In this document: in pieces, positions 24,478-60,157 of the stretch
Numbering within the stretch: the first letter of the stretch is position 1
Layout of the letters: each line of letters starts with the position of its first letter
From: Candidatus Bathyarchaeia archaeon
GTDB lineage: Archaea > Thermoproteota > Bathyarchaeia > Bathyarchaeales > Bathycorpusculaceae
Direction: 5' to 3'
Assembly: GCA_049516875.1 (NCBI GenBank)
Contig: JBEKSS010000011.1
Location: forward strand, 1 to 64,000
Length of the DNA stretch: 64,000 nucleotides
Translations under genes and position numbers: made by a program
The notes under the pieces: generated by a model
What the model was told of the DNA's origin: nothing
Database searches by the model: none
What the model saw: the letters and a program-made list of their open reading frames with translations, nothing else

Positions 24478-27400
24478 CTATTCGTGTTGGTTGAAGTAAT
24501 AGACGGCTATGGCTATGTCTTTCATGTTGACGATGCCGTCGTTGTTTACGTCTGCGTTGGGCTGCCAGTTCGATGAACTCGGCTTGGTGTTGAACAAGCT
24601 GACCAGGTAGGCTATGTCCTTCATGTTTGTAACGCCGTCATAGACGCCCGGCACCGTGCCGGAAACGTCGCCCGGAACACCAACATGAACCGGAACGTTG
24701 AACACGTAGTTGTTGTCGGTCGCCAGGGTTTCGTCTGGGACAACGTCTGCCACAGAGTCTACAGTGTAGTTGTCGTAAAGAAGTCCTGTGGTGTCCCAGG
24801 TGAAGTTGATCTCGGTGGAACTCCTCTCCGCCAGAACGACTGGTTGCAGGTCAACCCTTGACTGGTTGGCCCAGACTGCCACGTTGAAGGTTTCGCCGTA
24901 CATGCCGTAGTCCAGGATTATGAGGGTGATGTTGCAGCAGTAGCCTCTACCGACGACGGTTTTGCCCAGGGCTGCGGTGGCGATGCCGACGTTGTGCAGT
25001 TGGAACGGTTGGGCGAGGGGATAGTTGTCCTTGTTGTTGACGGCGATAGCGTAGGGCGTGTCGACTATGCCGTCGCTGCCCGGAATATTCTGGTTGGGGC
25101 CGCTGTTCTTATCCGGGCCTGTCCACGTGCTCCAATAGTTACCGCCAGAAGGATAGCCGTTGTCCCACGTGTTCCCGGGCGACGTTGAATTGGACAGCTG
25201 GAACGGGATGGTGTTGTCCATGAAGTTGTTGTGGTAGATGGCGTTGTTGTTGGAGTTGACGATGGTGATTCCCAGTTGGTTCTCGGTTATCATGTTTTCG
25301 CATATCGTGTTTCCGCTCGTTTCTATCTGTAGGCCTATGGAGCTGAGGCTGATGATGTTCTGCGAGATGACGTTGCTGCTCGACGAAGAGGTCACGTCGA
25401 CGGCAACAGAGTCTTGCTCGAACATGTTGCCCGAAACCTGGTTGCTGACCGCGCTGGTTCCTTGAAGGACGACGCCGTTGTTGTTGATAAGGGACATTAT
25501 GTTATCATAGATTTTGCAGCCGCTTGCGCCCTGAACGAGTATACCTTGATCCCAACTGGTTATCGTTATGCCGGCAATTATCGATCCAGAGCCGCTGGAC
25601 ACTATTGTTATGGCGATTCCGCTTCCGCCGCCGTTGAAGACCGGTTCGCTTCCCGGTTCGCCGATAAGCGTTATCGTCTTGTTAATGACCAGAGACTCGT
25701 GGTAGACGCCCGGGGCAATCCATATTGTGGCTCCTGGAGCAGCTGCATTTATGGCAGCCTGTATCGTGGGATAATCTTCCGGAACCCTGAGAACGGTCCC
25801 AAACGCGTATACAGAACCATCTTCAGAGCCCACGTAAAGCACGCCATCAGCAACAGCAGGAGAGGAAAACACGATGCTGCCTGCCGTGTAGTTCCACACC
25901 TGCGCTCCAGTCGAAGCATTGAGGCAGTAAACCCTGCCATCATTCGAGCCCACGTAGACTCTACCGCCAACAACTGCAGGAGAGGAAAACACATAGCTGC
26001 CTGTCGTGTAGTTCCACACCTGCGCTCCCGTTAAAGCGTCAAGACAGTAAGTCCTATTATCCCATGAGCCCACGTAGACTCTACCATCAGCAACAGCAGG
26101 AGAAGAATATACCCAGTTGCCTACCGTGTAGTTCCACACCTGTGCCCCGGTCGAAGCGTCAAGACAGTAAGTCCTATTATCGTACGAACCCACGTAAACC
26201 CTGCCAGCAACAACTGCAGGAGAAGAATACACCTTGTCGCCTGTCGTGTAGTTCCATAACTGTGCTCCTGTCAAAGCGTCAAGACAGTAAGTCCTATTAT
26301 CCCATGAGCCCACGTAGACTCTACCGCCAACAACTGCAGGAGAAGAATACACCGTGCCGCCTGTCGTGTAGTTCCACACCTGCGCTCCCGTTAAAGCGTC
26401 AAGACAGTAAACTCTCTTATCGAACGAGCCAACATAAACCCTACCATCAACAACTGCAGGAGAAGAGAGCACCTCGTTGCCTGTCGTGTAGTTCCATAAC
26501 TGTGCTCCAGTTGAAGCGTCAAGACAGTAAACTCTCTTATCGAACGAGCCCACGTAGACCCTACCAGCAACAACTGCAGGAGAAGAAAACACAAAGCTGC
26601 CTGTCGTGTAGTTCCACACCTGTGCCCCGGTCGAAGCGTCAAGACAGTAAGTCCTATTATCGTACGAACCCACGTAAACCCTACCAGCAACAACTGCAGG
26701 AGAAGAGAGCACCTCGTTGCCTGTCGTGTAGTTCCAGAGCTTGTTGTTTGTTCCAGGCGCAGGGCTTTCGCTGTAGCCCGAGTGAATGATATCGTGATGG
26801 AACGTGGGCCATGAATACCGTGTGTAGTATGGGCTCCATGGTTGCATGAGTGGATAGTTGTCTTTGTTATTCACGTCTATGGAGTAGGGTGTGTCTCCTA
26901 TTCCGTCGCTGCCCGTCTCATTCTGGTATGGCCCTCCATGCACGTCTGTCCCGTTGTAGTCACTCCAGAAGTTTCCGCCAGAAGGATAACCATCATCCCA
27001 AACATTAGTTGAGTTTGAAGAATAAGCTTGGCGGGTGTTGTTTATGAAGTTGTTATGGTAGATTGTATTGCTAGAAGAAGAATAGAGATAGATGCCAATA
27101 CTGTTTGCTGTCACGTTGTTTCTGCTTACACCGTTATTAGAGGAAGAAAGGAGCTCGATGCCATACAAGTTGTTTGTTATGTTGTTTCCTGAGATTATGG
27201 TGTTGTTTGTTTCCAGTAGTTCAACGCCGATGGAAGTGTGGGACAGGTTGAGGTTTTCCACGGTCACGTTGTTGCATGCGACGAGTATAACTTGCCCAGC
27301 GTCCCCAACCACACGGCCTGACACATCCTCAAGATAGATCAACGGTTTGCCGTTCACCAAGTTACCGGTCACCACATTCCCATAAGAATCCCACACGGAT

Positions 27401-28770
27401 AACCCGTCATTAGCAAACGAGTTTCCGCTCACGCTGTTATTATTGGAAGAAGAATAGAGATAGATGCCAATACTGTTTGCTGTTACGTTGTTTCCGTTCA
27501 CGCTGTTATTGGAAGAAGAAACGAGATAGATGCCAGCCGTGTTGTTTTTTATGTTGTTTCCGCCCACGCTGTTATTAGAAGAATCGAGCTCGATGCCAAC
27601 AAAGTTGTTTGCTGTAACGTTGTTTCCGCTCATGTTGTTATTAATAGAAGAAGACTCGACATAGATGCCATACATCTTGTTTGCTGTAACGTTGTTTCCG
27701 CTCATGTTGTTATTAATAGAAGAAGACTCGACATAGATGCCATACATCTTGTTTACTGCAACGTTGTTTCTGCTTACACCGTTATTAGAAGAAGAAAGGA
27801 ACTCGATGCCAGCCCAGTTGTTTGCTGTTATGTTGTTTCCTGAGATTATGGTGTTGTTTGTTTCCCATAGTTCGACGCCGATGGAAGTGTGGGACAGGTT
27901 GAGGTTTTCCACGGTCACGTTGTTGCATGCGACGAGTATAACTTGCCCAGCGTCCCCAACCACATAGCCTGACACATCCTCAAGATAGACTAGCGGTTTT
28001 CCGTTCACCAAGTTACCGGTCACCACATTCCCAGAAGAATTAGATACAGATAAGCCGTCATTAGCAAACGAGTTTCCGCTCACGTTGTTATTATTTGAAG
28101 AAGAATAGAACAAGATGCCAGCCCAGTTGTTTGCTGTTATGTTGTTTCCGCTCACACCGTTACTAGAAGAAGAATCGAGAAAGAGACCATAATAGCCGCT
28201 GTCTGTTATGTTGTTTCCGCTCACGCTGTTATTAGAAGAAGACTCGAGATCGATGCCATACAAGTTGTTTGCTGTTATGTTGTTTCCGCTCACATTGTTA
28301 CCAGAAGAATAAATGATCAAGATGCCAGCCCAGTTGTTTGCTGTTATGTTGTTTCCGCTCACACGGTTATTAGAAGAAGAATCGAGCCAGATGCCATATG
28401 CGAACGATGTGATTCTCATGTTTTTGATTGTCACGTTGCTTCTTCCCATCAACTCTATTCCTACAGAGCCTGAAGCGTTTGTGCTTTGTAGTGTGTGTCC
28501 CGCTCCGTCTATTGTGATGTTGTCTCTTTGTATGGTGATTGCGCTGGAAAAGGCTGTAGCGTTTCCCGTGATGTTGTCTGTTAGCCTGTAGGTCACGTTG
28601 TCAACGCTGGAAATGGGTGCTGTTGGCGGTTGTATGCTTCCGTCGGCCTGTATGTAGATGGTTTGGGTCCAAACATAATCGGACTTGACAGGTTGAACGT
28701 TATACGCCAAGGCTAATGCGCTTACTACGAGTAAGGATAGTATGATTATAGAAGCAGGTTTCCTAAACAA
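24478..28770 (-). CDS. Secreted protein: NosD/beta-helix, PQQ-like beta-propeller, beta-helix, CARDB-like, C-terminal dockerin-like
   Basis: Signal peptide; NNxVSGNNIT repeats; SSPAVxxGxVYVGS repeats; ends GDV...NMKDIAYL...ADVNNDGIVNMKDIAIAVYYFNQHE. Confidence 0.85.
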   Translation of the reverse strand: MFRKPASIIILSLLVVSALALAYNVQPVKSDYVWTQTIYIQADGSIQPPTAPISSVDNVTYRLTDNITGNATAFSSAITIQRDNITIDGAGHTLQSTNASGSVGIELMGRSNVTIKNMRITSFAYGIWLDSSSNNRVSGNNITANNWAGILIIYSSGNNVSGNNITANNLYGIDLESSSNNSVSGNNITDSGYYGLFLDSSSSNGVSGNNITANNWAGILFYSSSNNNNVSGNSFANDGLSVSNSSGNVVTGNLVNGKPLVYLEDVSGYVVGDAGQVILVACNNVTVENLNLSHTSIGVELWETNNTIISGNNITANNWAGIEFLSSSNNGVSRNNVAVNKMYGIYVESSSINNNMSGNNVTANKMYGIYVESSSINNNMSGNNVTANNFVGIELDSSNNSVGGNNIKNNTAGIYLVSSSNNSVNGNNVTANSIGIYLYSSSNNNSVSGNSFANDGLSVWDSYGNVVTGNLVNGKPLIYLEDVSGRVVGDAGQVILVACNNVTVENLNLSHTSIGVELLETNNTIISGNNITNNLYGIELLSSSNNGVSRNNVTANSIGIYLYSSSSNTIYHNNFINNTRQAYSSNSTNVWDDGYPSGGNFWSDYNGTDVHGGPYQNETGSDGIGDTPYSIDVNNKDNYPLMQPWSPYYTRYSWPTFHHDIIHSGYSESPAPGTNNKLWNYTTGNEVLSSPAVVAGRVYVGSYDNRTYCLDASTGAQVWNYTTGSFVFSSPAVVAGRVYVGSFDKRVYCLDASTGAQLWNYTTGNEVLSSPAVVDGRVYVGSFDKRVYCLDALTGAQVWNYTTGGTVYSSPAVVGGRVYVGSWDNRTYCLDALTGAQLWNYTTGDKVYSSPAVVAGRVYVGSYDNRTYCLDASTGAQVWNYTVGNWVYSSPAVADGRVYVGSWDNRTYCLDALTGAQVWNYTTGSYVFSSPAVVGGRVYVGSNDGRVYCLNASTGAQVWNYTAGSIVFSSPAVADGVLYVGSEDGSVYAFGTVLRVPEDYPTIQAAINAAAPGATIWIAPGVYHESLVINKTITLIGEPGSEPVFNGGGSGIAITIVSSGSGSIIAGITITSWDQGILVQGASGCKIYDNIMSLINNNGVVLQGTSAVSNQVSGNMFEQDSVAVDVTSSSSSNVISQNIISLSSIGLQIETSGNTICENMITENQLGITIVNSNNNAIYHNNFMDNTIPFQLSNSTSPGNTWDNGYPSGGNYWSTWTGPDKNSGPNQNIPGSDGIVDTPYAIAVNNKDNYPLAQPFQLHNVGIATAALGKTVVGRGYCCNITLIILDYGMYGETFNVAVWANQSRVDLQPVVLAERSSTEINFTWDTTGLLYDNYTVDSVADVVPDETLATDNNYVFNVPVHVGVPGDVSGTVPGVYDGVTNMKDIAYLVSLFNTKPSSSNWQPNADVNNDGIVNMKDIAIAVYYFNQHE
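25840..26760. repeat. Near-identical 120-bp coding tandem repeats (propeller blades)
   Basis: Sequence recurs every 120 nt, e.g. aagacagtaa at 26041, 26161, 26281, 26401, 26521, 26641. Confidence 0.9.
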
Positions 28771-29190: not shown

Positions 29191-31068
29191 TTATTCGTGC
29201 TGGTTGAAGTAGTAGACGGCTATGGCTATGTCCTTCATGTCGACGACGCCGTCGTTGTTCACGTCTGCGTTCGGGTTCCAGTTTGGCTTGTTGGGCTTCG
29301 TCTGGTACAGGCTGACCAGGTAGGCGATGTCCTTCATGTTGTCTACCCCATCATACACTCCGGGAGTCGTGCTGGACACGTCGCCTGGAACACCGATGTG
29401 GACAGGGGTGCTGCAGGTCCAGTTGTTGTCTGCCGTGTTTGTCTCGTTTTGAACAGGGCCTGCGCAAGCACACACAGTGTAGTTTCCATAGGCGAAACCA
29501 GTCGTGTTCCACGTTAACGTGAGGATCATGTAGTTGCTCTTTGTCAGCTTGACCGCTTGTGCGGTGGCTGTGGACGCGTCGGCATAGGCCGTTACAAGAA
29601 AGTCTTCGTCGTACACGCCGTAGTTCACGACCTTAACTTCCAAGCTAAGACTGTAACCCTTTCCGACAACGGTTTTTGACATAAGGTAATCCGTTATTCC
29701 AACGTCGTGCGCGTTGAAAGGCTGCACCAACGGGTACGTGTCAACTCCGCTTTCAGCGACAATGTACGGCGTGTCTACGATGCCATCGGCACCAGGCTGA
29801 TTCTGACTCGGGCCACTGTACGCGTCTGGGCTGGTATGGTCGCTCCAGTAGTTTCCGCCCGAAGGATAACCGTTATCCCATGCGTTTCCTGTTGACGCTG
29901 AAACCGACACTTGGACGGTATTGTTGACGAAGTTGTTGTGGTAGATTATGTTGCTGTTGGAGCTCACGATGCTGAGTCCGACCTGATCGTTCAGTATCAT
30001 GTTTTCGCACACGATGTTCTGGCTGCTCTCTATCTTGAGGGCGGTGGTGCTGAAGCAGATGATGTTCCTTGAAACATTGTTGCTGATCGATGAGGACGCC
30101 ACGTCGACCGCGATGAAATCGCTCTGGAATATGTTGCTGTAAACCTGGTTGTTGACGGCGCTGGCTCCTTGAATGACTATTCCTTTGCTGTTCAACGAAG
30201 ACATTATGTTGTTGTAGATCGTGCAGCTGCTTGAGCCGTTGATGAGTATGCCCTGGTCCCACCCGGTTATCACGATTCCTGCAACGGTAGATCCAGAGGC
30301 GTTGGACAACAATGTTATGGCAATTCCGGAGCCGCCTCCGTTGAAAATGGGCTCGCTTCCCAACCTGCCGATGATCGTAAGAGGTTTGTTAACGACTGTG
30401 GACTCGTTGTATACGCCTGGGCCTATCAGGATGGTTGTCCATGGAGTGGTCGCGTCTATTGCCGCCTGTATCGACTTGTAATCTTGGGGAACCCGAATAA
30501 CCCTGGTGTAATTGTAACTAGCACCGACCACGGCGGGCAAAATCGTGACGATCCCATTGAGCAGGAACGTGTCTCCATCTCGGGTCAAGGGTTTAGGTTC
30601 GAAGTCAATATTGCACGAAACCTGCCCAGCCGCTTGAATTATCTTCAAAGTCAGCACTGCAAGCCTTCCTGAGCCGTTGAAATATGTTTGACCTAGGCCG
30701 ATGCATGCACCACCAACAAACATCCCTGGTGCGCTATCATCATGAGCTTGTATTGGCGAATCGTATGCAAACACATTGTCTGAAGGAAGTATCACATTCA
30801 CATACTGAAGAAGCGTCGGATCCCAAGTGATGCCCACTTGCCAGCACGACAACAGTATGGCATTGGTTACCGTTATGTTTATGTCAAAAGTGTCTCCAAG
30901 ACTTTTCTGTGCAGGCGTGAAGTTGAAGCTGCTTGACCCATCAAGAGGATTGACTAAGGCCAATGTTGCGCCCGCCGGTGCACGCACTGGGATAACGATT
31001 CTCAGTGCACCTGCAAGAAACATCGCAACTAGAACACAAACCAAAACCTTACCTAATCTGCTCTTCAC
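29191..31068 (-). CDS. Secreted protein: cohesin-like, beta-helix, CARDB-like, dockerin-like
   Basis: TFDINITVTN...WQVGITWDPTLL...GSGRLAVLTLKI cohesin-like pattern; same dockerin tail. Confidence 0.8.
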   Translation of the reverse strand: MKSRLGKVLVCVLVAMFLAGALRIVIPVRAPAGATLALVNPLDGSSSFNFTPAQKSLGDTFDINITVTNAILLSCWQVGITWDPTLLQYVNVILPSDNVFAYDSPIQAHDDSAPGMFVGGACIGLGQTYFNGSGRLAVLTLKIIQAAGQVSCNIDFEPKPLTRDGDTFLLNGIVTILPAVVGASYNYTRVIRVPQDYKSIQAAIDATTPWTTILIGPGVYNESTVVNKPLTIIGRLGSEPIFNGGGSGIAITLLSNASGSTVAGIVITGWDQGILINGSSSCTIYNNIMSSLNSKGIVIQGASAVNNQVYSNIFQSDFIAVDVASSSISNNVSRNIICFSTTALKIESSQNIVCENMILNDQVGLSIVSSNSNIIYHNNFVNNTVQVSVSASTGNAWDNGYPSGGNYWSDHTSPDAYSGPSQNQPGADGIVDTPYIVAESGVDTYPLVQPFNAHDVGITDYLMSKTVVGKGYSLSLEVKVVNYGVYDEDFLVTAYADASTATAQAVKLTKSNYMILTLTWNTTGFAYGNYTVCACAGPVQNETNTADNNWTCSTPVHIGVPGDVSSTTPGVYDGVDNMKDIAYLVSLYQTKPNKPNWNPNADVNNDGVVDMKDIAIAVYYFNQHE

Positions 31069-31573: not shown

Positions 31574-32611
31574 TTAGCGCTTGATTTCATCGACCCATTT
31601 TCGCTCTTTTTTGAAGGCTAACGCTGCCAAGAGCGTTGCCACGATTAGCATGGGTAGGATAAGGATTGCAGAGAACTCTGGCATCCATGCAGTTCCGGTC
31701 CAGCGCACTATGGTCCCGTCGGTTCCCACAGCCCAACCATCACTGGCACTAACCATACATACCGAAATAAGCCAGTTACCCGTAGGGCTTGTTTTGTTAT
31801 CCCATTGCGTGCCGTTCCAATGAATTATGGTTCCACCTTCGCCTACGGCCCATACATCACTGACGTTGAGCGTAGATACTGAAGAAAGAAATCCGGTTGC
31901 TGGGTTCGTTACTGCGTTCCACGCGGTGCCGTTCCAATGGATCGTACTTCCAAAGCCTACTGCCCACCCGTCGCTAGAATTGACCATAGAAACAGAAAAG
32001 AAATCTGATACTATTGGACTCGTTACGTTACTCCATTGCACGCCATTCCAGTGTATCACCGTTCCTCCAAGACCTACTGCCCACCCGTCGCTTGCGTCGA
32101 TCACGTCTATTGATTCAAGTGACATTGGCGTCGGGCTCGCTACGTTGCTCCATTGTGTTCCGTTCCAACGAATTATTGCTCCGTCCTGACCTGCTGCCCA
32201 CCCATTACTGGCATCAATCATGTGTATGCCATAGAGGAACTTTGTCATTGGATTCGTAACGTTGCTCCATTCCGTCCCATTCCAATGTATTATGGTTCCA
32301 TGATCGCCGTATCCCAAATTATAACCGCCCACAGCCCACACATCATTAGGACTAGACATGAACACACAATAAAGCCAAGCATAAGGAACAGGGTTGGCCA
32401 CTATATTCCATGCTGAACCGTTCCAGTGGATCGTCGTTCCATCTTGACCCACCGCCCACCCGTCATTAGCATTTACCAAAGATACCGACAACAACTCAGC
32501 CACCGTCGGGCTGCTCCAGTTTAACCAAGCACTCTCTGCTCTAGCGACAGGCACACTTACGAACAACAAGATCGCCAAAAACAGAAGACATATCTGAATA
32601 GTGCTCTTCAT
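31574..32611 (-). CDS. Secreted beta-propeller repeat protein with PEF-CTERM sorting signal
   Basis: Seven DGWAVGxxGTIIHWNG repeats; C-terminal PEF, TM helix, basic tail. Confidence 0.85.
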   Translation of the reverse strand: MKSTIQICLLFLAILLFVSVPVARAESAWLNWSSPTVAELLSVSLVNANDGWAVGQDGTTIHWNGSAWNIVANPVPYAWLYCVFMSSPNDVWAVGGYNLGYGDHGTIIHWNGTEWSNVTNPMTKFLYGIHMIDASNGWAAGQDGAIIRWNGTQWSNVASPTPMSLESIDVIDASDGWAVGLGGTVIHWNGVQWSNVTSPIVSDFFSVSMVNSSDGWAVGFGSTIHWNGTAWNAVTNPATGFLSSVSTLNVSDVWAVGEGGTIIHWNGTQWDNKTSPTGNWLISVCMVSASDGWAVGTDGTIVRWTGTAWMPEFSAILILPMLIVATLLAALAFKKERKWVDEIKR

Positions 32612-32839: not shown

Positions 32840-35800
32840 CTATTCGTGTTGGTTGAAGTAGTAGACGGCTATAGCTATGTCTTTCATGTCGACGACGCCG
32901 TCGTTGTTCACGTCTGCGTTGGGGTACCACGGTGGCTTGCTAGGCTTGGTCTGGAACAGGCTGACCAAGTAGGCGATATCTTTCATGTTGACGATTCCGT
33001 CGTACACTCCTGGAGTCGTGCCGGACACGTCGCCCGGGACGCCCACGTGAACGGGAACGCTGCACGTGCAGTTGTTGTCCGCAGTGTCTGTTTCTCCCGG
33101 AACAGGCCATGCGTAAGCGCTTATGGTGTAGTTGCCGTAGGCAAAGCCAGTAGTGTTCCACGTGAAGGTGACGGGTGCAGAAGCGCCAGCTTCCAAAGTG
33201 ACAGATTGTGTTTGGATGGAAAAGCGTCCTCCTGTGCGTGTGTATTCAGCCCAAATCTCCTCAGCAGACAAAGCTCTATTGTAAATTTTAACTTCGTCGA
33301 TGATGCCATTGAACCAAAATCCAGTTGTAGGATTGTTACCAATCCTAAGTGATTGACCGGTATAGGCTAGATAACCTGCTCCTTGGCTACTTACAAGCTT
33401 TCCATTGACATAGATTTTTGAAGTTCCATCGAAAGTTCCAACAACATGATACCATACGCCTGGTTGAATAGTTCCAGGAGGTGAGTAACATATTCCTGGG
33501 GCAAATTCGATACCCGCATTCGGATTAATGCGCAGAAAATAACCCTCATAATAAAATGTACTTACAATAGTCGCATAAGTATTGACATCACTGGCTTTAA
33601 ACCATGTTTCTAATGTGATTGCCGTAGTTGGCATAAGACTGGGATCAGTCCCGCAATCAACATAATCATCAACTCCATCAAAGCTCAAGGCGCTATTTAC
33701 TTTCCCGCTCGTCCATGAAGCTCCGTATATAATTCCGTGATTGTTGTAGCCGGAGCTGTCGTAGGCTGTTGTACCTGAGCCTTCATCAAGCTTCCAGTAG
33801 CCAACCAAGCCTGGAGGCTGAGTGTAGCCAGTTAGGTTGCAGTAGGCGGTTACGTTGAAGGTTTCTGTGTAGCTGCCTTGATTTGCCGCTGTGACGTTTA
33901 TGCTGGCGCTGAAGCCTTGACCAACCACAGTCTTAGAAGGCGCAACATTGGTGACGGCTACATCATGAACACCAAAAGCGTAAACATTCCCGTCGTTTGA
34001 GCCCACGTAGACTTTACCACCAGCAACAGCAGGAGAAGAATCCACCACACCGCCTGTCGTGTAGCTCCAGATATATGCGCCCGTCGTAGCGTTCAAAGCG
34101 TAAAAATTGCCGTTAGTTGAGCCCACATAGACGAAACCACCGGCAACAGCAGGAGAAGAATACACGTAACTGCCTGTTGTGTAGCTCCATATGAGTGCGC
34201 CCGTCGTAGCGTTCAAAGCGTAGACCTTGCCGTCAAATGAGGCCACGTAGACGACACCACCGGCAACAGCAGGAGAAGAAACCACGGAATTGCCTGTTGT
34301 GAAGCTCCACACCTGCGCGCCCGTCGTGGCGTTCAAAGCATAGGTCCTGTTGTCAGCTGAGCCCACATAGACGAAACCACCGGCAACAGCAGGAGAAGAA
34401 TACACGTAACTGCCTGTTGTGTAGCTCCATATGAGTGCGCCCGTCGTTGCGTTCAAAGCGTAAACATTGTCGGCCCAATATGAGCCCACGTAGACGACAC
34501 CACCAGCAACAGCAGGAGAAGACATCACGTAACTGCCTGTTGTGAAGCTCCATATGAGTGCGCCCGTCGTTGCGTTCAAAGCGTAAACATTACCGTCATC
34601 TGAGCCCACGTAGACGACACCACCAGCAACAGCAGGAGAAGACTCCACCCAACTGCCTGTTGTGAAGCTCCACACCTGCGCGCCCGTCGTGGCGTTCAAA
34701 GCATAGGTCCTGTTGTCACATGAGCCCACATAGACGACACCACCAGCAACAGCAGGAGAAGACCGCACCCAACTGCCTGTTGTGAAGCTCCATATGAGTG
34801 CGCCCGTCGTGGCGTTCAAAGCGTAGGTCCTGTTGTCAGCTGAGCCCACATAGACGAAACCACCGGCAACAGCAGGAGAAGAAGATACGCCGCCGCCGGT
34901 TGTGTAGGTCCAGAGAGTTTGGTTTGTGTTTGGCGCCGTTGAAGTTGAATATCCGTTGTGCCACAGGTCATGATGGAACATCGGCCACCGTTCGCGAGGA
35001 TTCTTCACAAGTACAGAGTTGCCGCTTATTACCACAGTTACGCCGTCTGGCACTTCGTCTGGCGCATTTGCATAAAACGGAGTCCAGGTTGCAGCGATGC
35101 TAGTGCCATTGGTTGATGTCCAGTAGTTGTTGTAGAAGTAGAAGTCGAAAGCGGGAGAGCCTCCAGGGGTGGATGTCTGCCAGACTTCTTCATAGTCCGT
35201 ATAGTCATAGACCCCCGAATAAAGATAAGACAAAACCAAGTAGTCCCCACCTGTTGGTGCGTCTAGTGACCAAACCAGATTGGAGCTCTGATATGCAGCA
35301 AAACTGGTGACACCACTTTGGGTGGTGATGTAGAATGTATATGTGACTCCCAAGGATAGGGCCAAGGCGTTCGGTGAATAGTTATAGGTCAGATTATCTA
35401 GCGGACCAGTTGTCCACGAATAGGATAATCCCCAAATGCCATAATCATCAGCAAATCCAATCTGATTGTAGCTTCCGTTATTATCCCAAGCTGAAAGAAT
35501 TACGTAATAGAATTCATCTGATCGAGGCGCGGAAGAGGGAACCGTAATACTCACGTTAATGGTACTCGCATTCTCTGTAGACGCCCACCAAGGACGTACG
35601 CCCCCAGCATACCAATGGGTATCATAACCCGTAGTGGGTGTCTCCGGAGCCAGTGTCGGAAATATGACACGCCCGTTAACCGCAGGAAAGGGTTCTCCCT
35701 GGGTCCACGATAATTCATGTATTGGCGCACTCGAAGTCAAATTAGTTGAATCTGCGGGTGCGAACGAATCAACACTCCTTGCTTGCCCAGATTCTTCTCT

Positions 35801-35902
35801 TAAACTTGCTTTCACGCTGAATGGTTGGACGTTAAATGCCACCGTTAACGCACTTGCTAACAGCATTATCAGCATTGTGACTACAACTATTTTCCTTTCC
35901 AT
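32840..35902 (-). CDS. Secreted protein: unknown domain, PQQ-like propeller, CARDB with LamG insertion, dockerin-like
   Basis: 120-bp SSPAVAGG repeats; LVGYWKLDEGSG...FNGIIDEVKIYNRAL LamG; same dockerin tail. Confidence 0.85.
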   Translation of the reverse strand: MERKIVVVTMLIMLLASALTVAFNVQPFSVKASLREESGQARSVDSFAPADSTNLTSSAPIHELSWTQGEPFPAVNGRVIFPTLAPETPTTGYDTHWYAGGVRPWWASTENASTINVSITVPSSAPRSDEFYYVILSAWDNNGSYNQIGFADDYGIWGLSYSWTTGPLDNLTYNYSPNALALSLGVTYTFYITTQSGVTSFAAYQSSNLVWSLDAPTGGDYLVLSYLYSGVYDYTDYEEVWQTSTPGGSPAFDFYFYNNYWTSTNGTSIAATWTPFYANAPDEVPDGVTVVISGNSVLVKNPRERWPMFHHDLWHNGYSTSTAPNTNQTLWTYTTGGGVSSSPAVAGGFVYVGSADNRTYALNATTGALIWSFTTGSWVRSSPAVAGGVVYVGSCDNRTYALNATTGAQVWSFTTGSWVESSPAVAGGVVYVGSDDGNVYALNATTGALIWSFTTGSYVMSSPAVAGGVVYVGSYWADNVYALNATTGALIWSYTTGSYVYSSPAVAGGFVYVGSADNRTYALNATTGAQVWSFTTGNSVVSSPAVAGGVVYVASFDGKVYALNATTGALIWSYTTGSYVYSSPAVAGGFVYVGSTNGNFYALNATTGAYIWSYTTGGVVDSSPAVAGGKVYVGSNDGNVYAFGVHDVAVTNVAPSKTVVGQGFSASINVTAANQGSYTETFNVTAYCNLTGYTQPPGLVGYWKLDEGSGTTAYDSSGYNNHGIIYGASWTSGKVNSALSFDGVDDYVDCGTDPSLMPTTAITLETWFKASDVNTYATIVSTFYYEGYFLRINPNAGIEFAPGICYSPPGTIQPGVWYHVVGTFDGTSKIYVNGKLVSSQGAGYLAYTGQSLRIGNNPTTGFWFNGIIDEVKIYNRALSAEEIWAEYTRTGGRFSIQTQSVTLEAGASAPVTFTWNTTGFAYGNYTISAYAWPVPGETDTADNNCTCSVPVHVGVPGDVSGTTPGVYDGIVNMKDIAYLVSLFQTKPSKPPWYPNADVNNDGVVDMKDIAIAVYYFNQHE

Positions 35903-36012
35903 TTTTCCTTTCTCCTTTTTGTTGTCATGGAGACGTTAGGCCTCGGCCAGTTCGGCACGCAGCCTTCCAGAAAGCCATGGGAATCGGCCAATTCATAAAA
36001 GCATCTCCTTCC

Positions 36013-36150
36013 TCACCAGACAGTGTAACTGGCAAACCTACTTAAGGCTTGTGAAACATTGTTACGGGTCCGATTTCTGCCGGACGCTCTGGGCGTCTGC
36101 CGTCGGCCACGAATGCACCATGAGGAACGGACACGGATGAAACGCGTTCC
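36013..36150. repeat. Conserved upstream block, copy 1
   Basis: 70-bp core 36080-36149 matches 44476-44545 with one mismatch; TTAAGTA TATA-like box on the minus strand. Confidence 0.85.
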
Positions 36151-37337: not shown

Positions 37338-37353
37338 CAGCCTAGCGCGTTTC

Positions 37354-39387: not shown

Positions 39388-39459
39388 AAGTGACAGGTGA
39401 ACAAAAAGGGGGGTTATTCGTGTTGGTTGAAGTAGGCGATGGCTATGGCTATGTCTTTC
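39388..39459 (-). pseudogene. Orphan dockerin 3' end with its terminator
   Basis: Encodes KDIAIAIAYFNQHE*; downstream flank matches 29161-29190. Confidence 0.8.
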
Positions 39460-39724
39460 GCGTTGCGGTGTGGAACTAACTGTCAAGTTGTTATCGTGGC
39501 ATTTCTTCACCTAACTTGACCTCGGGGAGCCTTCAACAAACATGTACGCGAGCAAAGAAATTGGAGCTTGTCACAGGAGAATACGTCAGCGTGCTTCAAA
39601 CAACAGCCTATCAACAATCTTTGCTTGGACAGTTTTGTCTTGAACCCGCGGTTACCGTTTGAAAGCGTTTTGGGCGTGAAACGAAAAGGAAAAAAAGGGA
39701 AGCTTCGTTTCTCAGGCTGTCCGC

Positions 39725-42451
39725 CTATGGGTCGTTGCCTGGTGCGTTCATGTTGAAGCGCGCTACTGTTCCTGCTATGTCTTTCATGTTGCTGACGCGG
39801 TCTCCGTAGGGATCAACGCAGCCGTTTGCACCGTACACTCCGACCCATTTTGGATCTAGGACGGTTGAAGTTGGTGCTTTGGCGTTGAAGTGGACGACGA
39901 GGTATGCGATGTCTTTCATGTTGATTTTTCCGTCTGAAACGCCCACTGTTGAGCCGCTGACGTCGTACCACGGAGTGTCTTGCTTCCAGATAGTGTACGC
40001 ATGCTCACCTGGGTACAGCGCGTCATAGTACCAGCCTTTAACCCAGTAGTTGCACCAATGTCCGCCTGTTGGCGTGGCGACTGTGAAGCTTGGACAATCA
40101 TTGTAGTATATCTGCTGCAATTGGTTGTACAATGCCTGTCTTGCCATGTATCCGGGAGAGCCTAGACCAGCGCTGTCGTCAGTGAACAGGGCCTGGTCTA
40201 TCAGTGCGTCTTTCTGAGTGCTCCCACCGTTCGCAGCCGTGTAGCCCTGGAGGCTGGCAAAGAATCCATTACTATGCATGTATGCACGCACAAAGTCGTC
40301 GGCATCCGCAAAGTCTGCAAGCCAGCGGACGTCGAACATCGGCAGGTTCTGGGCATAAAAGTCGGTGATGAACGTGTTCCAGCTGATTGGTGCTAAGTTG
40401 ATGGTGAAGGTGCCTGCTGGACCAAACGGTCCAGTACCGAACATGGTCTGTAGTGTTGTGAAGAAGGTCTGTATCTCGGTGCATGCGGTCTGTCGCGCGC
40501 TGTTTCCGGTGTTGTATGGCAAAGTGAATGTGAAGCCCCATTGCCACAAGCTCTTAGTCACGCCGCCTACCGTGAAGGTCGCGCTCGTCAAGCAGGTGAA
40601 TGCTGCGAGGTAGTTCATGTTGTAACCGCTGGAGGCCCAGTTGTAGTAGTCGGGGTACAGGCCTTCTACGAACGGGTTGACCCTGTTCACCTGGGCCGCG
40701 CCAAACAAAGCATTAGTGATGTACTGCGTCTGGCTGAACGAGTAGGCAAAGGCTTTTCTAACGTTCGTATTGCTGAAGAAGTTGGTTGGAATTCCTGTGG
40801 GCAAACTCCCAGTTCCGATGTATGGGCTGGCGGGGTTTATAACGAAGGTGAACATGTTCGCATCCAGCATTAGCTCCGGCGCTACGCGCTGGATAGTCTT
40901 CACGCTTGGGACCAATGGCAGTCCGTTCGACCCAACCATGAGAGGCAGGGCAGACATCGGGATTATCGCAGTGTCGAGTGCGCCCGAGTTAAGTAAACTT
41001 GCCCTCGTAGCGTCAGATGCGATGTACGCTATGTTGACCGTGTCCACGTAGCCGTTGGTTGCCGTGGGGATGTTCGGTGGGCTAGCAGGATCGCCGCATG
41101 GGTTGCCGTAGGGATCCGTTGCTGGCCATCCTCTCCAGTAGCCTGGGTTCCTCTGCAGAATCACTTGTCCGGCTACGCTGTTAATCGTCTGCACGTAGTA
41201 CGGACCTGTGCCGCAGTACCTGTTCGGCTGAAGAGGTTGATCCACTGGATCTAGGCTCTTCTGGGCCGCACCGAATCGCGCCCAGTCCATCCACCAGTCC
41301 GGGTACACTAAGCATCCCGTTCCAGGATATTGCAGTGCTGGTGCCTTGCGTCCTGTGATACGAGTCGAGACTGCGGTGGGACTTTGCATGTACTTTGACG
41401 TGTCGTACAGGTTTCCGTTCCAAGCGCCCAGGTTGTTAATCGCGTAGGCGCTGCTTATGACGTCCATGAACGTGTTGGCAAGGTTTTGCTTGAAGGCGTT
41501 GTCTGGGAATCTGTCGCCCACGTTGATGATGAGGTTGTTGCCGCTGACTTGATATGCATCGTCAATCAGGTGAGCCAGGTCCATCAGGTTCGGGTGACCA
41601 GCCGCGCTTGGATTTGCTGATTCAGTATTAGCCCAGTAAAGGTGGTTTGTTGCGTCGTTGAAAAGTGGCAAGTCCATTATCCAGTTTGGAGCAAACGCGC
41701 AGTCCATAACTGAATAGTAGCTGAAGCTGTACTTGACATCGGCAATGGAGAACTGGCCCTGTTGGATGCCTTGGTAGTTGTAGAAGTATATTGGTGGGGT
41801 TGTGCGGATGTTGAACGTGTAGTATCCACGCCACAAGGTCAACGTGTAGGTTCCTGACGCGTAGGTCATGGCGTCAACGGTCCAGGTGCGCCATGTGTTC
41901 GCGACGAAGTCTTTTAGGTAAACGTTGTCGCCCGCGTCGAACACGAGGTCTGCGTTCTGGTCAACCCAGCCGGTGCCGAGGAATGGACCGGTTTCGGGTG
42001 AGTTTCCAGAGACGAAGGTGAAGGTTGCGCCTGTCGGACTATTACCATATGCTGTGGCGAGGTTATTGGTGGTGACCGTCATTACATACGAACTTCTGGT
42101 TGGAACGTTCGTGGCCAGCACCGGGTTGAAGTTGAAGTAGAGTTCTCCGTTATTTGGTGATAGAGACGGAAATGGGTTAACACTGCCCGCCCATTGTGTC
42201 CCTCCTTGCGGTAAAGTCCCGAACTCGATTAGGCCCTCGTAAACGTTGAACAGGAGTTCTCCACTGGCGGTGTCGTAAGCGACGCCTGGGTCAGCATCAA
42301 TCGGACCCCAACCGGTGTCGCCTACATAGTACGTGGTTGTGTTAATCGGCGGCTGGGCAGGAGGGACAGAATGGACTTTCGCTTGCGGAGCAACGATTGG
42401 AAGCAACATTATAGCCACAGCAAATATCGCAATCAAAAATAGTTTCTTCAT
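39725..42451 (-). CDS. Family 5 (peptide/nickel) ABC substrate-binding protein with C-terminal dockerin-like domain
   Basis: DPGVAYD...NVYEGL, CGTGPY, VRKAFAYSF, WLADFAD; ends DGKINMKDIAYL...NMKDIAG. Confidence 0.88.
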   Translation of the reverse strand: MKKLFLIAIFAVAIMLLPIVAPQAKVHSVPPAQPPINTTTYYVGDTGWGPIDADPGVAYDTASGELLFNVYEGLIEFGTLPQGGTQWAGSVNPFPSLSPNNGELYFNFNPVLATNVPTRSSYVMTVTTNNLATAYGNSPTGATFTFVSGNSPETGPFLGTGWVDQNADLVFDAGDNVYLKDFVANTWRTWTVDAMTYASGTYTLTLWRGYYTFNIRTTPPIYFYNYQGIQQGQFSIADVKYSFSYYSVMDCAFAPNWIMDLPLFNDATNHLYWANTESANPSAAGHPNLMDLAHLIDDAYQVSGNNLIINVGDRFPDNAFKQNLANTFMDVISSAYAINNLGAWNGNLYDTSKYMQSPTAVSTRITGRKAPALQYPGTGCLVYPDWWMDWARFGAAQKSLDPVDQPLQPNRYCGTGPYYVQTINSVAGQVILQRNPGYWRGWPATDPYGNPCGDPASPPNIPTATNGYVDTVNIAYIASDATRASLLNSGALDTAIIPMSALPLMVGSNGLPLVPSVKTIQRVAPELMLDANMFTFVINPASPYIGTGSLPTGIPTNFFSNTNVRKAFAYSFSQTQYITNALFGAAQVNRVNPFVEGLYPDYYNWASSGYNMNYLAAFTCLTSATFTVGGVTKSLWQWGFTFTLPYNTGNSARQTACTEIQTFFTTLQTMFGTGPFGPAGTFTINLAPISWNTFITDFYAQNLPMFDVRWLADFADADDFVRAYMHSNGFFASLQGYTAANGGSTQKDALIDQALFTDDSAGLGSPGYMARQALYNQLQQIYYNDCPSFTVATPTGGHWCNYWVKGWYYDALYPGEHAYTIWKQDTPWYDVSGSTVGVSDGKINMKDIAYLVVHFNAKAPTSTVLDPKWVGVYGANGCVDPYGDRVSNMKDIAGTVARFNMNAPGNDP

Positions 42452-42657: not shown

Positions 42658-44374
42658 CTACTCGTGTTGGTTGAAGTAGTAGACGGCTATTGCTATGTCT
42701 TTCATGTCGACTACGCCATCGTTGTTCACGTCTGCGTTCGGGTCCCAGTTTGACTTGTTCGGCTTGGTCTGGAAGAGGCTGACAAGGTAGGCGATGTCCT
42801 TCATGTTCGTGATTCCGTCGTACACTCCGGGAGTCGTGCTGGACACGTCGCCTGGAACGCCCACGTGAACTGGAACGCTGCACGTGAAATTGTTGTTCGC
42901 CGTGTCTGTTTCTCCCGGAACAGGCCAAGCGTAAGCACTTAACGTGTAGTTGCCGTGGGCAAAGCCTGTTGTGTTCCACGTGAAAACAAGTTGCGCAGAA
43001 TTTCCGCTTGGAAGGGCAGTGACTTCTTGCTTTCCTATCGAGGTTCCGTTGACGTAGACCGTGACGTTGAAGGTTTCTTGGTAGCTGCCTTGGTCTGCTA
43101 CCGTGACGTTTATGCTCGCACTGAAGCCTTGAGCGACAACAGTCTTGGAAGACGCAACATTGGTGACGGCTACATCATCGCCTCCTGGCGCGCTCGCGCC
43201 AAAAGCATAAACATGCTGGGAGGAGCCTTCGTATACCACGCCGCCAACAACAGCAGGAGAAGAATACGGGCCACCAACCCCCCCTTCGGTTGCGTAGCTC
43301 CATATCAGCTCTCCCGTCGTGGCGTTCAAAGCAACAAACTTACCGTGGTCAAGAGTTAAGCCTATGTATACGACGCCGTCAGCAACAGCAGGAGAAGACA
43401 TAACGTCATCGCCGGTTCAAAGCATAAACCTTGTTGTCTTCTGAGCCTACGTAGACGACGCCGTCAACAACAGCAGGAGAAGACACCACAAAATCGCCGG
43501 TTGTGTAGTTCCATATCAGCTCTCCCGTCGTGGCGTTCAAAGCATAAACATTATCGTCGTATGAGCCTACGTAGACCACGCCACCAGTAACAGCAGGAGA
43601 AGACCACACCCCACCGTCGGTTGTGTAGCTCCATATCAGCAGTCCCGTCGTGGCGTTCAAAGCATAAACCGTGCCGCCGTTCGGATAGAATGAGCCTACG
43701 TAGACCACGCCACCAGTAACAGCAGGAGAAGAATACACCCCACCGTCGGTTGTGTAACTCCATATCAGCAGTCCCGTCGTGGCGTTCAAAGCATAAACGT
43801 TACCGTCGAATGAGCCTACGTAGACCACGCCACCAGTAACAGCAGGAGAAGAATACACCCCCGAACTGCCGGTTGTGTAGTTCCATATCAGCTCTCCCGT
43901 CGTGGCGTTCAAAGCATAAACGTTACCGTCGACTTGGCCTGATTCGTTAAAGGTCGAGCCTACGTAGACGACGCCGTCAGCAACAGCAGGAGAAGACTCC
44001 ACCGAACCGCCCGTTGTGTAGCTCCATATCAGCAGTCCCGTCGTGGCGTTCAAAGCATAAACCTTGTCGTCGTCACGGTTTGAGCCTATGTATAGGACAC
44101 CGCCAGCAACAGCAGGAGAAGAACTAACCGTACTGACGGTTGTGTATATCCAGAGAGTTTGGTTTGTGTTCGGCGCCGTTGAAGTGGAGTAGCCGGTGTG
44201 CGTCAGGTCATGGTGGAACATGGTCCACCAGTCCGTGGGATCTACGGTGGACTGTGACCCAAGAAGTCTGGGGCTGCCATGAGAATCGGCTGCTCCAGAG
44301 AGACTACTCAAGGGAAATACTGACACAAAGAACAACAAAACCAAGACGAAACTAACAACCGCTTTATTCCTCAT
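42658..44374 (-). pseudogene. Frameshifted PQQ-propeller, CARDB, dockerin gene (ORFs 43406-44374 and 42658-43401)
   Basis: About 35 nt missing from one repeat unit near 43415 compared with neighbouring units. Confidence 0.8.
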
Positions 44375-44410
44375 TTTCCCTACCCTTCCCCCATCTTCCC
44401 TAACGCGCGC

Positions 44411-44545
44411 TCATCAAACAGTGTAACCGACAACCTACTTAAGACTTGTGAGACAATGTTTCACGCTGGTTTACACCGGACGCTCTGGGCGTCTGCCGTC
44501 GGCCACGAATGCGCCATGAGGAACGGACACGGATGAAACGCGTTC
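44411..44545. repeat. Conserved upstream block, copy 2
   Basis: Matches 36013-36150. Confidence 0.85.
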
Positions 44546-47375: not shown

Positions 47376-47876
47376 TTATGGGTAGTGCTTGTTGTATTTC
47401 ATTACTGTCAAGACGATGTCTATCACGTTTGTCCTGAGGTCGGCGTTGAGGTCGGTGTATGGATTCCAGCGTGGCTCAAACGGAACGCCATTGAACGCGT
47501 TTACGAGTGCGGCAATGTCTTTCATGTCGATTTTTCTGTCACCGTTTATGTCCGCCGTCAACAGGTCCGTTGACACCGCGTTGATTAATGGATATTCGTC
47601 TTGGTTGAGTCCGTCAGCTGTAACATTGTACGGTGTATCGCCTAACACGTCGCCGTTGCTGTCTTTGCCACCCTGTGCAGTGACGTAGTCGCTCCAATAG
47701 TTTCCACCACTCTCGGGAGCAGTACCGTTGTTCCAAGTGTCCATAGCGTTTACCGCAAGCACTAGCGGCGTGTCGCCTATGATGTTGTTGTGGTATATCG
47801 CGTTGCCTTGGCTGAAGACATCAACTATGCATATTTGATTTAGGCCGCTAGTTATGTTGTTCTGAGCAAAGTTGTT
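47376..47876 (-). pseudogene. 5'-truncated NosD-dockerin gene
   Basis: Frame reads ANNFAQNNITS...IYHNN...GGNYWSDY...ADINGDRKIDMKDI; cut at (CG)5 47877-47886 with an in-frame TAA just beyond. Confidence 0.8.
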
Positions 47877-48110
47877 CGCGCGCGCGATTTAAGCTTTTTT
47901 GGAACATTGTTCTATGCTTGCGAACGCGCGCCACTCCCAGAAAACAAAATCAACTCAGAACCGTTCTCCCACCCATGCAACAACCCTAAATCCCCCCTTC
48001 CAAAGCCCCAAACCTCACCCCACCAAACTCAAACACACCAAAACCACCACCAGAAACCACCTGCACAAACAATCTAACAACTCACAACAACACCCAACAA
48101 GCCAGTTTTG

Positions 48111-48296: not shown

Positions 48297-48489
48297 TTTT
48301 CTCACCAAGATGTCCACCAATTCACCAACGTCGGCCCTGAGAAGAAAATGTCTGCGTCTGCGTGGATAAAACGGCCCTAGGCGCAACGCCGTTTCTGCGC
48401 GCGGGCAAGGTTTGATACCCGTCTGTCGCATAGTAGGCAATGAACAGGGCTGGCAACGTGGGCTAAGTCATAAAAAAAAAGAAGAGGTT

Positions 48490-49914
48490 TTAGAGATGTT
48501 TGTTGAAGTTCATGACGGCGATTACTATGTCTTTCATGTCGATTCTGCCGTCCGCGTTTATGTCCATGAACGGATTGTACCGAGGTGTTCCGGCGAAGGC
48601 ATTGAACGATGGCAGCATAGCCATAATGCCCTTGAAGTTAACGACACCAGTATTGAGGACGTCTCCAGGCAGCATCACATAAATGTTGCCGTAGGTTACG
48701 TTGTTGTCTGCAGGCGTAGGGTCAGTCGGCAAATCAGCGAACGCGCTGAGCGTGTAGTTGCCTATCACCCATCCAGTCGTGTTCCACGCGAACGTTAGAG
48801 TTGCGTTGTTGTTTGGGCTAAGACCAGTTTCAGTTTGAAGTGGCGCCGCCTGCGTTCCGTTAGCGTAGATTGAGACGCCAAAGGTTTCACTGAACCCTCC
48901 AGAGCCGTCGTTAGTCACCGTCACACTCACGTTCAACGAAAATCCTTGACCAACAGAAGCAGGGTTCAAAGGAACAATCTTCAAAATAGCCACATCATGC
49001 CCAGCCCCTTCTTGTATGATTTGGACTGTACCGAACGGAAAGTTGTTGTCTGCTGGTGTGGGATCTCCCGGCAAGTCTGCTGTCGCATTGAGGGCGTAGC
49101 CGCCTAACGCAAATCCATTCGTGTTCCATATGAAGGTCAGTGTCGTACTGTTACCAGAGGGCAAGGCCGTTGCTGTCTGGTTGGGTGCTGCTTGCACCGA
49201 GTTAACGAAGACCGCCACGTTAAAAGTCTCTGTGAAGCCCCCAGTGTTTGTCACCGTCACGTTCACGTTCAACGAAGAGCCGTTAACAACACTGGTCCCG
49301 TTAGTCACAATCTTCGTCACGGCGACATCATGCTTTGGCCCCGATGGCCCAGTGTAGCTGTAACTAGCACCGACCACATCAGGCAAAATCGTGAGCAGCC
49401 CCCTCAGCAGGTACGTATCTCCATTTGGGGTGGGGGGTTTAGGTTCGAAGTCAATATTGCATGAAACCTGCCCAACCACATTAATTATCTTCAAAGTCAA
49501 CACTGCAAGCCTTCCTGAGCCGTTGAAAGATGCTGCACCAACGCCGACGTTTGCGCCACCAACAGCAAGCCCCGGCTGACTCAAATCAAAGGCTGGTATT
49601 GGTCCGTCGTATGCAAACACATTGTCCGAAGGAAGTACCATTTTGACCCCCTCAAGAAGCGTTTGATCCCAAGTGATGCCCACTTGCCAGCCCGACACCA
49701 GCGTAGCATTGGTGATGGTTACGTTTATGTCAAAAGTGTCTCCGAGAATTTTCTGGGCAGGTGTGAAGTTGAAGTTGCTTGACCCATCAAGAGGATTGAT
49801 TAAGGCAATTGTTGCGCCCGCCGCTGCACGCACTGGGATAGCGATTCCCGCCGCGCTTGCAAGAAACATTGCAATCAAAACACAAACCAGAATCTTGTTC
49901 AACCTGTATTTCAC
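48490..49914 (-). CDS. Secreted protein: cohesin-like, 2x CARDB-like, dockerin-like
   Basis: 5' third is a close paralog of 29191-31068; ends DINADGRIDMKDIVIAV. Confidence 0.8.
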   Translation of the reverse strand: MKYRLNKILVCVLIAMFLASAAGIAIPVRAAAGATIALINPLDGSSNFNFTPAQKILGDTFDINVTITNATLVSGWQVGITWDQTLLEGVKMVLPSDNVFAYDGPIPAFDLSQPGLAVGGANVGVGAASFNGSGRLAVLTLKIINVVGQVSCNIDFEPKPPTPNGDTYLLRGLLTILPDVVGASYSYTGPSGPKHDVAVTKIVTNGTSVVNGSSLNVNVTVTNTGGFTETFNVAVFVNSVQAAPNQTATALPSGNSTTLTFIWNTNGFALGGYALNATADLPGDPTPADNNFPFGTVQIIQEGAGHDVAILKIVPLNPASVGQGFSLNVSVTVTNDGSGGFSETFGVSIYANGTQAAPLQTETGLSPNNNATLTFAWNTTGWVIGNYTLSAFADLPTDPTPADNNVTYGNIYVMLPGDVLNTGVVNFKGIMAMLPSFNAFAGTPRYNPFMDINADGRIDMKDIVIAVMNFNKHL

Positions 49915-60131: not shown

Positions 60132-60157
60132 TCCGATCTGCCATCCCGGAAGATAGC

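Follow-up and report, generated by a model that had tools for sequence, protein, structure and literature searches.

Cohesin and dockerin modules in a Bathyarchaeia genome suggest a non-cellulosomal surface-display network

The window analysed here, a stretch of 64,000 nucleotides (contig JBEKSS010000011.1, positions 1 to 64,000, assembly GCA_049516875.1, Candidatus Bathyarchaeia archaeon), contains between 24.4 and 50 kb a series of long minus-strand open reading frames (ORFs). Seven loci in this series, referred to below by their lower coordinate (24478, 29191, 32840, 39725, 42658, 47376 and 48490), end in a dockerin tail, and two of them, 29191 and 48490, also start with a cohesin. The window further encodes TFB, FttA/aCPSF1, FKBP26 and a proteasome subunit, and its FttA is up to 96% identical to those of Bathyarchaeia metagenome-assembled genomes (MAGs), many from peat or bog assemblies. 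TFB, FttA and FKBP26, together with this identity, point to an archaeal host within Bathyarchaeia. The source genome, that of an uncultured archaeon of peat or soil, is itself a MAG (2.43 Mb, 97% complete), in which no 16S gene was found; the window holds no tRNA gene. Coordinates with a C prefix (C2, C3, C8, C10, C11 and so on) denote contigs of the same genome outside the window, C11 being the window's own contig. We consider that the window is probably part of a genome-wide, non-cellulosomal cohesin-dockerin network for surface display, including adaptors, in which the modules would pair and would depend on Ca2+.

Five of the loci are intact genes, each with a signal-like N-terminus (N-terminal signals and transmembrane (TM) helices were called here and below from Kyte-Doolittle hydropathy windows). 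Locus 24478..28770 (-) encodes 1430 aa with a NosD/right-handed beta-helix (3.8e-81), a PQQ_2-type propeller (3.1e-65), a second beta-helix, a CARDB-like module and a dockerin of the long-loop class designated type A (tail at nt 24481-24705; Dockerin_1 24.5 bits; 164.8 bits to A2, a profile of 12 of the genome's long-loop tails). In 29191..31068 (-), of 625 aa, a cohesin at residues 32-191 (about nt 30496-30975; 25.5 bits in the protein scan, 26.3 bits in the genome scan) precedes a NosD beta-helix, a CARDB-like module and a type A dockerin (A2 162.2 bits). The product of 32840..35902 (-), 1020 aa long, consists of a 280-aa domain, a PQQ_2 propeller (8.2e-70), a CARDB-like module split by Laminin_G_3 (5.7e-27) and a type A dockerin (Dockerin_1 20.0 bits, A2 164 bits). 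Its 280-aa domain (residues 40-320; nt 34943-35785) matched no Pfam family, and its best Atlas scores (0.84) are leads only, to clusters without a common family. Locus 39725..42451 (-) encodes an SBP_bac_5 protein of the OppA/NikA type (908 aa; 8.7e-24) with a divergent long-loop dockerin and a longer inter-repeat linker (A2 45.6 bits, E 1.3e-11). The fifth, 48490..49914 (-), encodes 474 aa with a cohesin at residues 32-190 (about nt 49345-49821; 21.2 bits), two CARDB modules (9.6e-17) and a dockerin (A2 50.7 bits) whose first loop is degenerate and second canonical. The payloads named in the original prediction, namely beta-helices, PQQ-like propellers, LamG, CARDB and an ABC binding protein, thus reappear in Pfam as NosD/Beta_helix, PQQ_2, Laminin_G_3, CARDB and SBP_bac_5. 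None of the seven dockerin proteins showed a C-terminal hydrophobic anchor in the hydropathy scan, as also foreseen. The NCBIfam scan added nothing to the Pfam results.

The other two loci, which the original prediction listed alongside these five, need correction. Locus 42658..44374 (-) is a single propeller-CARDB-type A dockerin gene lying in two frames and broken inside a propeller blade, with the 5' half and signal peptide at 43406-44374 and the CARDB and dockerin in the 3' half at 42658-43401. Where the frames meet, the blade period (repeat family D3) is 85 nt instead of 120 nt, and the missing 35 nt shift the frame; the break may be a true pseudogene or a collapsed assembly repeat. Locus 47376..47888 (-) is a 3' remnant comprising the end of a NosD-type beta-helix and a canonical dockerin (33.8 bits). 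What is left is the final 128-170 codons of the gene; the open frame, 170 codons long, starts inside a beta-helix repeat and has no signal peptide. There is also an eighth site, a stub at 39414..39465 (-), recognised through repeat families D7 and D11, where a type A dockerin survives as its final ~17 codons with the stop, and where the frame contains no ORF of at least 25 aa.

Two further observations concern the same interval. Among the dockerin genes, 31574-32611 (-) encodes a 345-aa protein in which a BNR/Ycf48-like repeat propeller is combined with a signal-like N-terminus and a C-terminal TM anchor, and which has neither cohesin nor dockerin. Two copies of a 138-nt repeat, at 36012-36149 and 44410-44545, share 87% identity overall and 99% in a 70-nt core. 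The repeat was considered as a mobile-element border and rejected; its copies lie upstream of the paralogous propeller-dockerin genes 32840 and 43406 and are duplicated upstream sequence, so each gene was duplicated with the region before it.

Each of the seven ORFs ends in a tail of 60-75 residues made of two Ca-loop and helix segments, the feature on which the original prediction was built and which was recovered at all seven positions. Whole-protein Pfam scans recognised Dockerin_1 (PF00404; gathering cut-off 22.9 bits) in five of the seven, with 24478 (24.5 bits) and 47376 (33.8 bits) above the cut-off. Scores below it were obtained for 29191 (18.4-21.3 bits), 32840 (20.0), 42658 (21.9) and 48490 (15.6-15.9; E 0.015), and the 39725 tail had no Pfam dockerin match. 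A six-frame scan of the genome brought four of the seven window tails above the cut-off. Searched against the Protein Data Bank (PDB), A2 gave 16 matches at E <= 1, of which 15 are dockerin-bearing chains (best 5k39_B, E 3e-7), and it also found the tails that are weak or not among its rows (39725, E 1.3e-11; 48490, 4e-13; 47376, 5.1e-10). By homology, all seven tails are dockerins. In the structural model of 48490, moreover, the helices occupy the expected places (residues 427-436 and 460-468).

In a canonical dockerin, each of the two tandem segments is a 12-residue Ca loop of the DxNxDGxxDxxD type with a helix behind it. Positions 10 and 11 of the Ca loops are the recognition positions of type I dockerins. 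The motif MKD occupies loop positions 10-12 in both halves of 24478, 29191, 32840, 42658 and 39725, in the first half only of 47376 and in the second half only of 48490, in keeping with the predicted recurrence of MKD in most tails. The five first-loop insertions that had been noted are also present: in 24478, 29191, 32840, 39725 and 42658 the insertion measures six residues (seven in place of one between positions 3 and 5), and the first loop of type A tails is 18 residues long. The first loop of 47376 is canonical and that of 48490 degenerate. The second loop is canonical or nearly so in six of the seven; in 39725, positions 3 and 6 are occupied by Y and R.

The two N-terminal cohesins score on either side of the Pfam threshold (PF00963; gathering cut-off 24.1 bits), with 25.5-26.3 bits for 29191 and 21.2-21.7 bits for 48490. 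We folded 48490 at full length with AlphaFold2 (AF2) from an 11-row alignment (mean predicted local distance difference test (pLDDT) 75.4). Residues 32-190 of this model matched Clostridium acetobutylicum CohA2 (6kgc_A) with Z 16.2 and a root-mean-square deviation (rmsd) of 2.2 Å over 139 residues, and the Archaeoglobus fulgidus cohesin 2xdh with Z 14.3, rmsd 2.7 Å over 128 residues at 12% identity; all of the top 41 structural-match rows (VIA) are cohesin entries. The N-terminal domain as modelled has the nine-stranded beta-sandwich (jelly-roll) fold of cohesins, and residues 299-416 resemble the Pyrococcus CARDB 3idu_B (Z 12.9). Since the 48490 model matches solved cohesins and the 29191 domain is 75% identical to it, both proteins start with a cohesin and end with a dockerin, as originally proposed. 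This type of cohesin has no match above 41% identity in 40 other genomes of the order, and orthologues at 93% and 87% identity occur in a larger protein collection. A pattern scan of the genome contigs with the 48490 protein confirmed none of 75 pattern matches.

Outside the window, the same modules recur throughout the genome. PF00404 matched 24 places, 18 of them above the cut-off, and our own hidden Markov model (HMM) of the tails found 22 full dockerins and two half fragments. Cohesin proteins number 8-9. Pfam recognises C2:185522, C3:43847, C11:108535, 29191 and, below the cut-off, 48490; a lineage-specific cohesin HMM adds C8:18862, C11:109535, C10:30839 and, weakly, C11:103190. A further candidate, C9:54404-55192 (13 bits), was rejected as a Peptidase_A4. 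A search for an anchored cohesin, which the original prediction had recommended, revealed four membrane-anchored single-cohesin proteins. The short protein C2:185522-186523 starts with a signal peptide and has a single cohesin and a C-terminal TM helix; C11:108535-109143, 45 kb past the end of the window on its own contig, has one cohesin and a C-terminal TM helix; C3:43847-45238 (-) (L105) fuses a cohesin (37-40 bits) to a polytopic membrane domain of about nine helices; and in C8:18862-19707 a cohesin is accompanied by a Thr/Pro-rich stalk and an N-terminal TM helix. The polytopic domain of C3:43847, which contains a GLGD motif, matched no Pfam family at E <= 1; a presenilin-like reading of this motif is unsupported and was set aside. 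A hydrophobic segment near the N-terminus was found in 24 of 29 cohesin, dockerin or neighbour ORFs, the five exceptions being the broken piece and the remnant, an ORF truncated at the end of its contig, C11:108535 (no segment above threshold) and C10:30839 (segment at residues 56-75).

A second cohesin/dockerin cluster lies beyond the window on the same contig (C11:93431-111680). Its members are a subtilase (S8) bearing a type A dockerin; a protein of 945 aa in which a dockerin accompanies weak cohesin-like repeats; the anchored cohesin C11:108535 mentioned above; a protein that, by sequence, joins cohesin-like and CARDB-like modules to a type A dockerin and whose gene has an exact copy of the promoter box described below; and a CARDB-dockerin ORF truncated by the end of the contig.

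Combined cohesin and dockerin modules occur in at least two proteins outside the window, with C11:109535, C10:30839 and C11:103190 (its cohesin weak) as candidates. Such proteins would be adaptors that add layers to the network. They could instead build a self-assembling lattice or polymer, in which the cohesins of 29191 and 48490 bind their own or a neighbouring dockerin class and form head-to-tail chains capped by dockerin-only proteins. The combination of a cohesin with the abundant type A dockerin in 29191 speaks for such chains, as do the additional two-module candidates and two relatives in the protein database (P0005 and P0007) in which cohesin, CARDB and dockerin families are joined in a single protein; by eye reading of the sequence rather than by domain scan, these relatives have about three cohesin-like repeats. 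In characterised adaptor scaffoldins, by contrast, the cohesin and dockerin of one protein differ in specificity, which prevents self-polymerisation, and the 48490 dockerin is distinct from type A, as expected of an adaptor. We regard such polymerisation as unlikely.

The cargo recognised outside the window comprises Peptidase_C25, Peptidase_S8, Peptidase_C39_2 (C39-like), SBP_bac_5, Polysacc_deac_1 (CE4 deacetylase), NosD and PQQ_2, with a second SBP_bac_5 and dockerin protein at C10:17392. These families point to surface capture and breakdown of peptides and other polymers. A cellulosome-like carbohydrate-active complex, in which the NosD-type beta-helices are lyase- or epimerase-like enzymes degrading plant or microbial polysaccharide in peat, would draw on the nearest sequence matches of the 24478 beta-helix (NosD 7o0y_A, E 4.6e-6; alginate C5-epimerase AlgG 4ozy_A, E 2.3e-5), on the single dockerin protein with Polysacc_deac_1 and on the peat and bog origin of the MAGs with the closest FttA. 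We consider this very improbable. Pfam scans of 9 proteins in the window and of 20 cohesin/dockerin proteins elsewhere (E <= 0.01 or 0.001) detected no glycoside hydrolase (GH), polysaccharide lyase or carbohydrate-binding module (CBM) family, which agrees with the non-cellulosomal character and the lack of a recognisable glycoside hydrolase in the original prediction. The recognisable enzymes are peptidases. A multi-cohesin scaffoldin is also missing, no ORF in this 97%-complete genome exceeding a single confident cohesin; the two cohesin-like stretches of C11:103190 are weak (E 0.0035 and 0.026).

Type A comprises 13 tails on unrelated cargo, each directly behind a CARDB-like module. Across 12 of them (C3:146085, in which the dockerin is internal, was left out), the mean protein identity is 79% and the identities at the three codon positions are 0.81, 0.90 and 0.68, which indicates purifying selection on these tails and not just recent copying. 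All 13, every one of them in this genome, reach at least 146 bits with A2, a profile built from 12 of these same copies; across 41 genomes of the order, the best tail outside the class reaches 77 bits. Cohesin matches were found in 27 of 41 related genomes, as for a trait of the lineage. A first-loop insertion of five residues (17-residue loop) is present in 7 of 12 tails of a congener (G003) and in 4 of 8 tails of a genome from another genus (G021), counted among their best-scoring tails, so that, judging from these sequences, a long first loop is not peculiar to this genome. Mean tail identity within genomes (0.52, 0.63 and 0.56) exceeds that between genomes (0.37-0.50) in a comparison biased by the selection of the relatives' tails on their score to A2. 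This pattern fits dockerins that co-evolve with the cohesins of their own genome, without proving co-evolution.

These data also bear on whether the modules pair in this cell at all. The tails might be Ca-stabilised caps or might bind the S-layer, glycans or cohesins of partner cells, and the cohesin folds might be generic adhesion sandwiches. The function of non-cellulosomal modules is stated as unknown in PMC5244752 (section 3.5), the cargo is rich in adhesion-type modules (CARDB, propellers and beta-helices), and plugs far outnumber sockets. However, strongly conserved, genome-specific tails on unrelated cargo fit a protein partner common to them all, the two kinds of module occur together across the lineage, and anchored cohesins are encoded near dockerin genes (C11:108535 is adjacent to C11:109535, and some 2 kb separate C2:185522 from C2:182386). 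Taken together, a cell in which the modules do not pair appears quite improbable.

A possible promoter element accompanies some of these genes. The window has two exact matches to TAGAA-N5-TTCCA, both on the minus strand: one at 49995..50009, followed 5 nt on by TTTAAA, lies 95 nt upstream of the 48490 start codon, and the other at 47900..47914, with CTTAAAT 6 nt on, lies upstream of the 47376 remnant. In a greedy ORF call of the genome, which is not a curated annotation, 4 of 25 cohesin/dockerin genes have the exact box in the 250 nt before them, compared with 2 of 2169 other ORFs (Fisher p 1.9e-7); with up to one mismatch the counts are 6/25 and 43/2169 (p 1.2e-5). At this stringency the box is not enriched across the window (7 matches versus 4.97 expected). 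A stricter expression that required a TATA-like box (4/26 versus 5/2168 others) was dropped because it missed known exact boxes. Upstream of 29191, 32840, 39725 and 43406 no match better than three mismatches was found, so the box marks only a subset of cohesin/dockerin genes and its presence is a lead towards co-regulation.

In the network that we favour, the proteins would be exported through the N-terminal signal sequence, and the C-terminal dockerin, directly behind the immunoglobulin (Ig)-like CARDB, would fold around Ca2+ and plug into a cohesin. Sockets would be offered by the four membrane-anchored proteins and by the N-terminal cohesins of the dockerin-ending proteins 29191, 48490 and at least two more elsewhere, the latter extending the assembly as adaptors. 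The outcome would be the display of beta-helix and propeller modules, an OppA/NikA-type receptor and peptidases on the cell surface, and not a cellulosome. CARDB and dockerin may act as a unit, by analogy with the X module-dockerin dyad (XDoc), because the best PDB matches of the tails are dockerins of such dyads and the tails directly follow CARDB without a linker.

Several observations weigh against this network. Three of the seven tails and one of the two cohesins fall below their Pfam cut-offs, and an AF2 model of a type A tail alone (mean pLDDT 56) was too weak for a fold search. Six of the seven tails depart from the canonical form in the first loop, which makes Ca binding there uncertain. 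One locus is a broken gene, another is truncated and an extra stub is present, so part of the dockerin set is decaying or misassembled. Plugs (about 22) outnumber sockets (8-9), and all four anchored cohesins lie outside the window and none inside it. We infer the pairings between cohesins and dockerins in this genome, that of the abundant type A included; in a complex prediction for a single pair, the 48490 cohesin (residues 31-192) and a type A dockerin with two Ca, scores of 0.23, 0.33 and 0.29 were obtained, with the mark at 0.32, and count neither for nor against pairing. Signal-like N-termini and TM helices come from a simple hydropathy window rather than a signal-peptide predictor, the count of 4/25 promoter boxes depends on the greedy, uncurated ORF set, and the contamination estimate of the MAG is 5.4%.

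A more far-reaching version of the network would hold for Bathyarchaeia at large. In it, a fast-evolving CARDB-dockerin dyad with a first loop of 17-18 residues would be homogenised within each species and matched to species-specific cohesins, giving a layered, self-extending 'proteolosome', as opposed to a cellulosome, of peptidases, peptide receptors and beta-helix/propeller binders under a TAGAA-N5-TTCCA regulon. We put this forward tentatively and think it unlikely. If true, it would explain how abundant archaea of sediments and peat reach detrital polymers.

Among described systems, the closest parallel is found in anaerobic methanotrophic (ANME) archaea. The original prediction gave isolated pairs in Archaeoglobus as the archaeal precedent, which understates it, as large ANME sets of dockerins and cohesins are in print (PMC9012536). 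Chadwick et al. 2022 (PMC9012536, section 32) and Timmers et al. 2017 (PMC5244752, section 3.5) describe binding proteins of the OppA/NikA and TroA types that bear dockerins, and proteins in which a dockerin is combined with as many as five cohesins. The former source also reports that archaeal cohesin-dockerin pairs bind specifically and that binding in Archaeoglobus fulgidus has been verified. As in ANME-1 and ANME-2 as described there, the present host is an archaeon not thought to be cellulolytic; its dockerin and cohesin proteins are numerous, OppA/NikA-type substrate-binding proteins bear dockerins, some proteins contain both modules, and CARDB is abundant. The features that characterise an ANME-type network are, by sequence, found here as well: an archaeal host, non-GH cargo including SBP_bac_5 (39725 and C10:17392), and both modules in 29191 and 48490. 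Unlike the ANME systems as described there, the host belongs to Thermoproteota, proteins carry a single cohesin as opposed to a maximum of five, no S-layer-domain or multihaem cargo was seen, the cargo includes C25, S8 and C39-like peptidases, and a long-loop dockerin class dominates. With Archaeoglobus fulgidus, the system shares a non-cellulosomal archaeal cohesin fold (2xdh, Z 14.3); it differs in having about 22 dockerins and 8-9 cohesins as against a handful of modules, and in sequence (12% identity to 2xdh).

Bacterial systems offer partial likenesses. In PMC2930009, Ruminococcus flavefaciens ScaC is a single-cohesin adaptor inside a GH cellulosome with the multi-cohesin scaffoldins ScaA and ScaB. 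Like the secreted ScaC, 48490 and 29191 combine one cohesin and one dockerin in a single protein, predicted here to be secreted, but neither such a scaffoldin nor GH cargo is found here, and 29191 adds a large beta-helix payload. The same paper (section 11) describes group 1 dockerins of R. flavefaciens in which the second Ca repeat has 11 or 13 residues. On that account they resemble the present tails in a Ca repeat that departs from 12 residues and is confined to the system of one species, and differ in that the first loop is the altered one here (18 residues in type A, 17 in the relatives G003 and G021). The best matches of A2 (4wi0_B, E 1.4e-6, and 2b59_B, 7.5e-6, after 5k39_B) are dockerins of PDB entries titled as type II cohesin-X-dockerin complexes, from the XDoc dyads of Clostridium thermocellum and Acetivibrio cellulolyticus scaffoldins, which likewise have an Ig-like module directly before the dockerin without a linker. 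CARDB is, however, not an X module, the first Ca loop carries the six-residue insertion, and a binding role of CARDB is presumptive. The 48490 cohesin model is slightly nearer to cohesins of type I (Z 16.2) than to cohesins from entries that name type II in the title (Z 14.4). Compared with cellulosomes, the genome lacks a multi-cohesin scaffoldin and GH/CBM cargo, and the anchors found are TM helices.

In the literature searched, we found no paper on cohesin-dockerin systems of Bathyarchaeia. Non-cellulosomal cohesin-dockerin systems of archaea are already known, and the novelty here is modest, consisting in a tail class specific to the genome, a CARDB-dockerin cassette and a first loop of unusual length. 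In sediments and peat, Bathyarchaeia rank with the most abundant of the uncultured archaea. A plug-in surface network with peptidases and peptide receptors would be a concrete architecture, testable with recombinant proteins, for the way in which they reach and take up macromolecular food. The genome-specific, conserved tails would also provide protein engineering with a natural set of possibly orthogonal cohesin-dockerin pairs.

Elsewhere in the window, a gas-vesicle cluster occupies 58212-63851 (-), with two Gas_vesicle (GvpA/J-type) genes, GvpK, one GvpL/F and a GvpL/F-DnaJ fusion, and with Hsp70 adjoining. At 3858-10295, a low-GC island (~0.40) carries Phage_integrase, DUF2130 and GmrSD restriction endonuclease genes and separates the POR alpha/gamma gene (1885-3804) from the POR beta gene (10792-11757).

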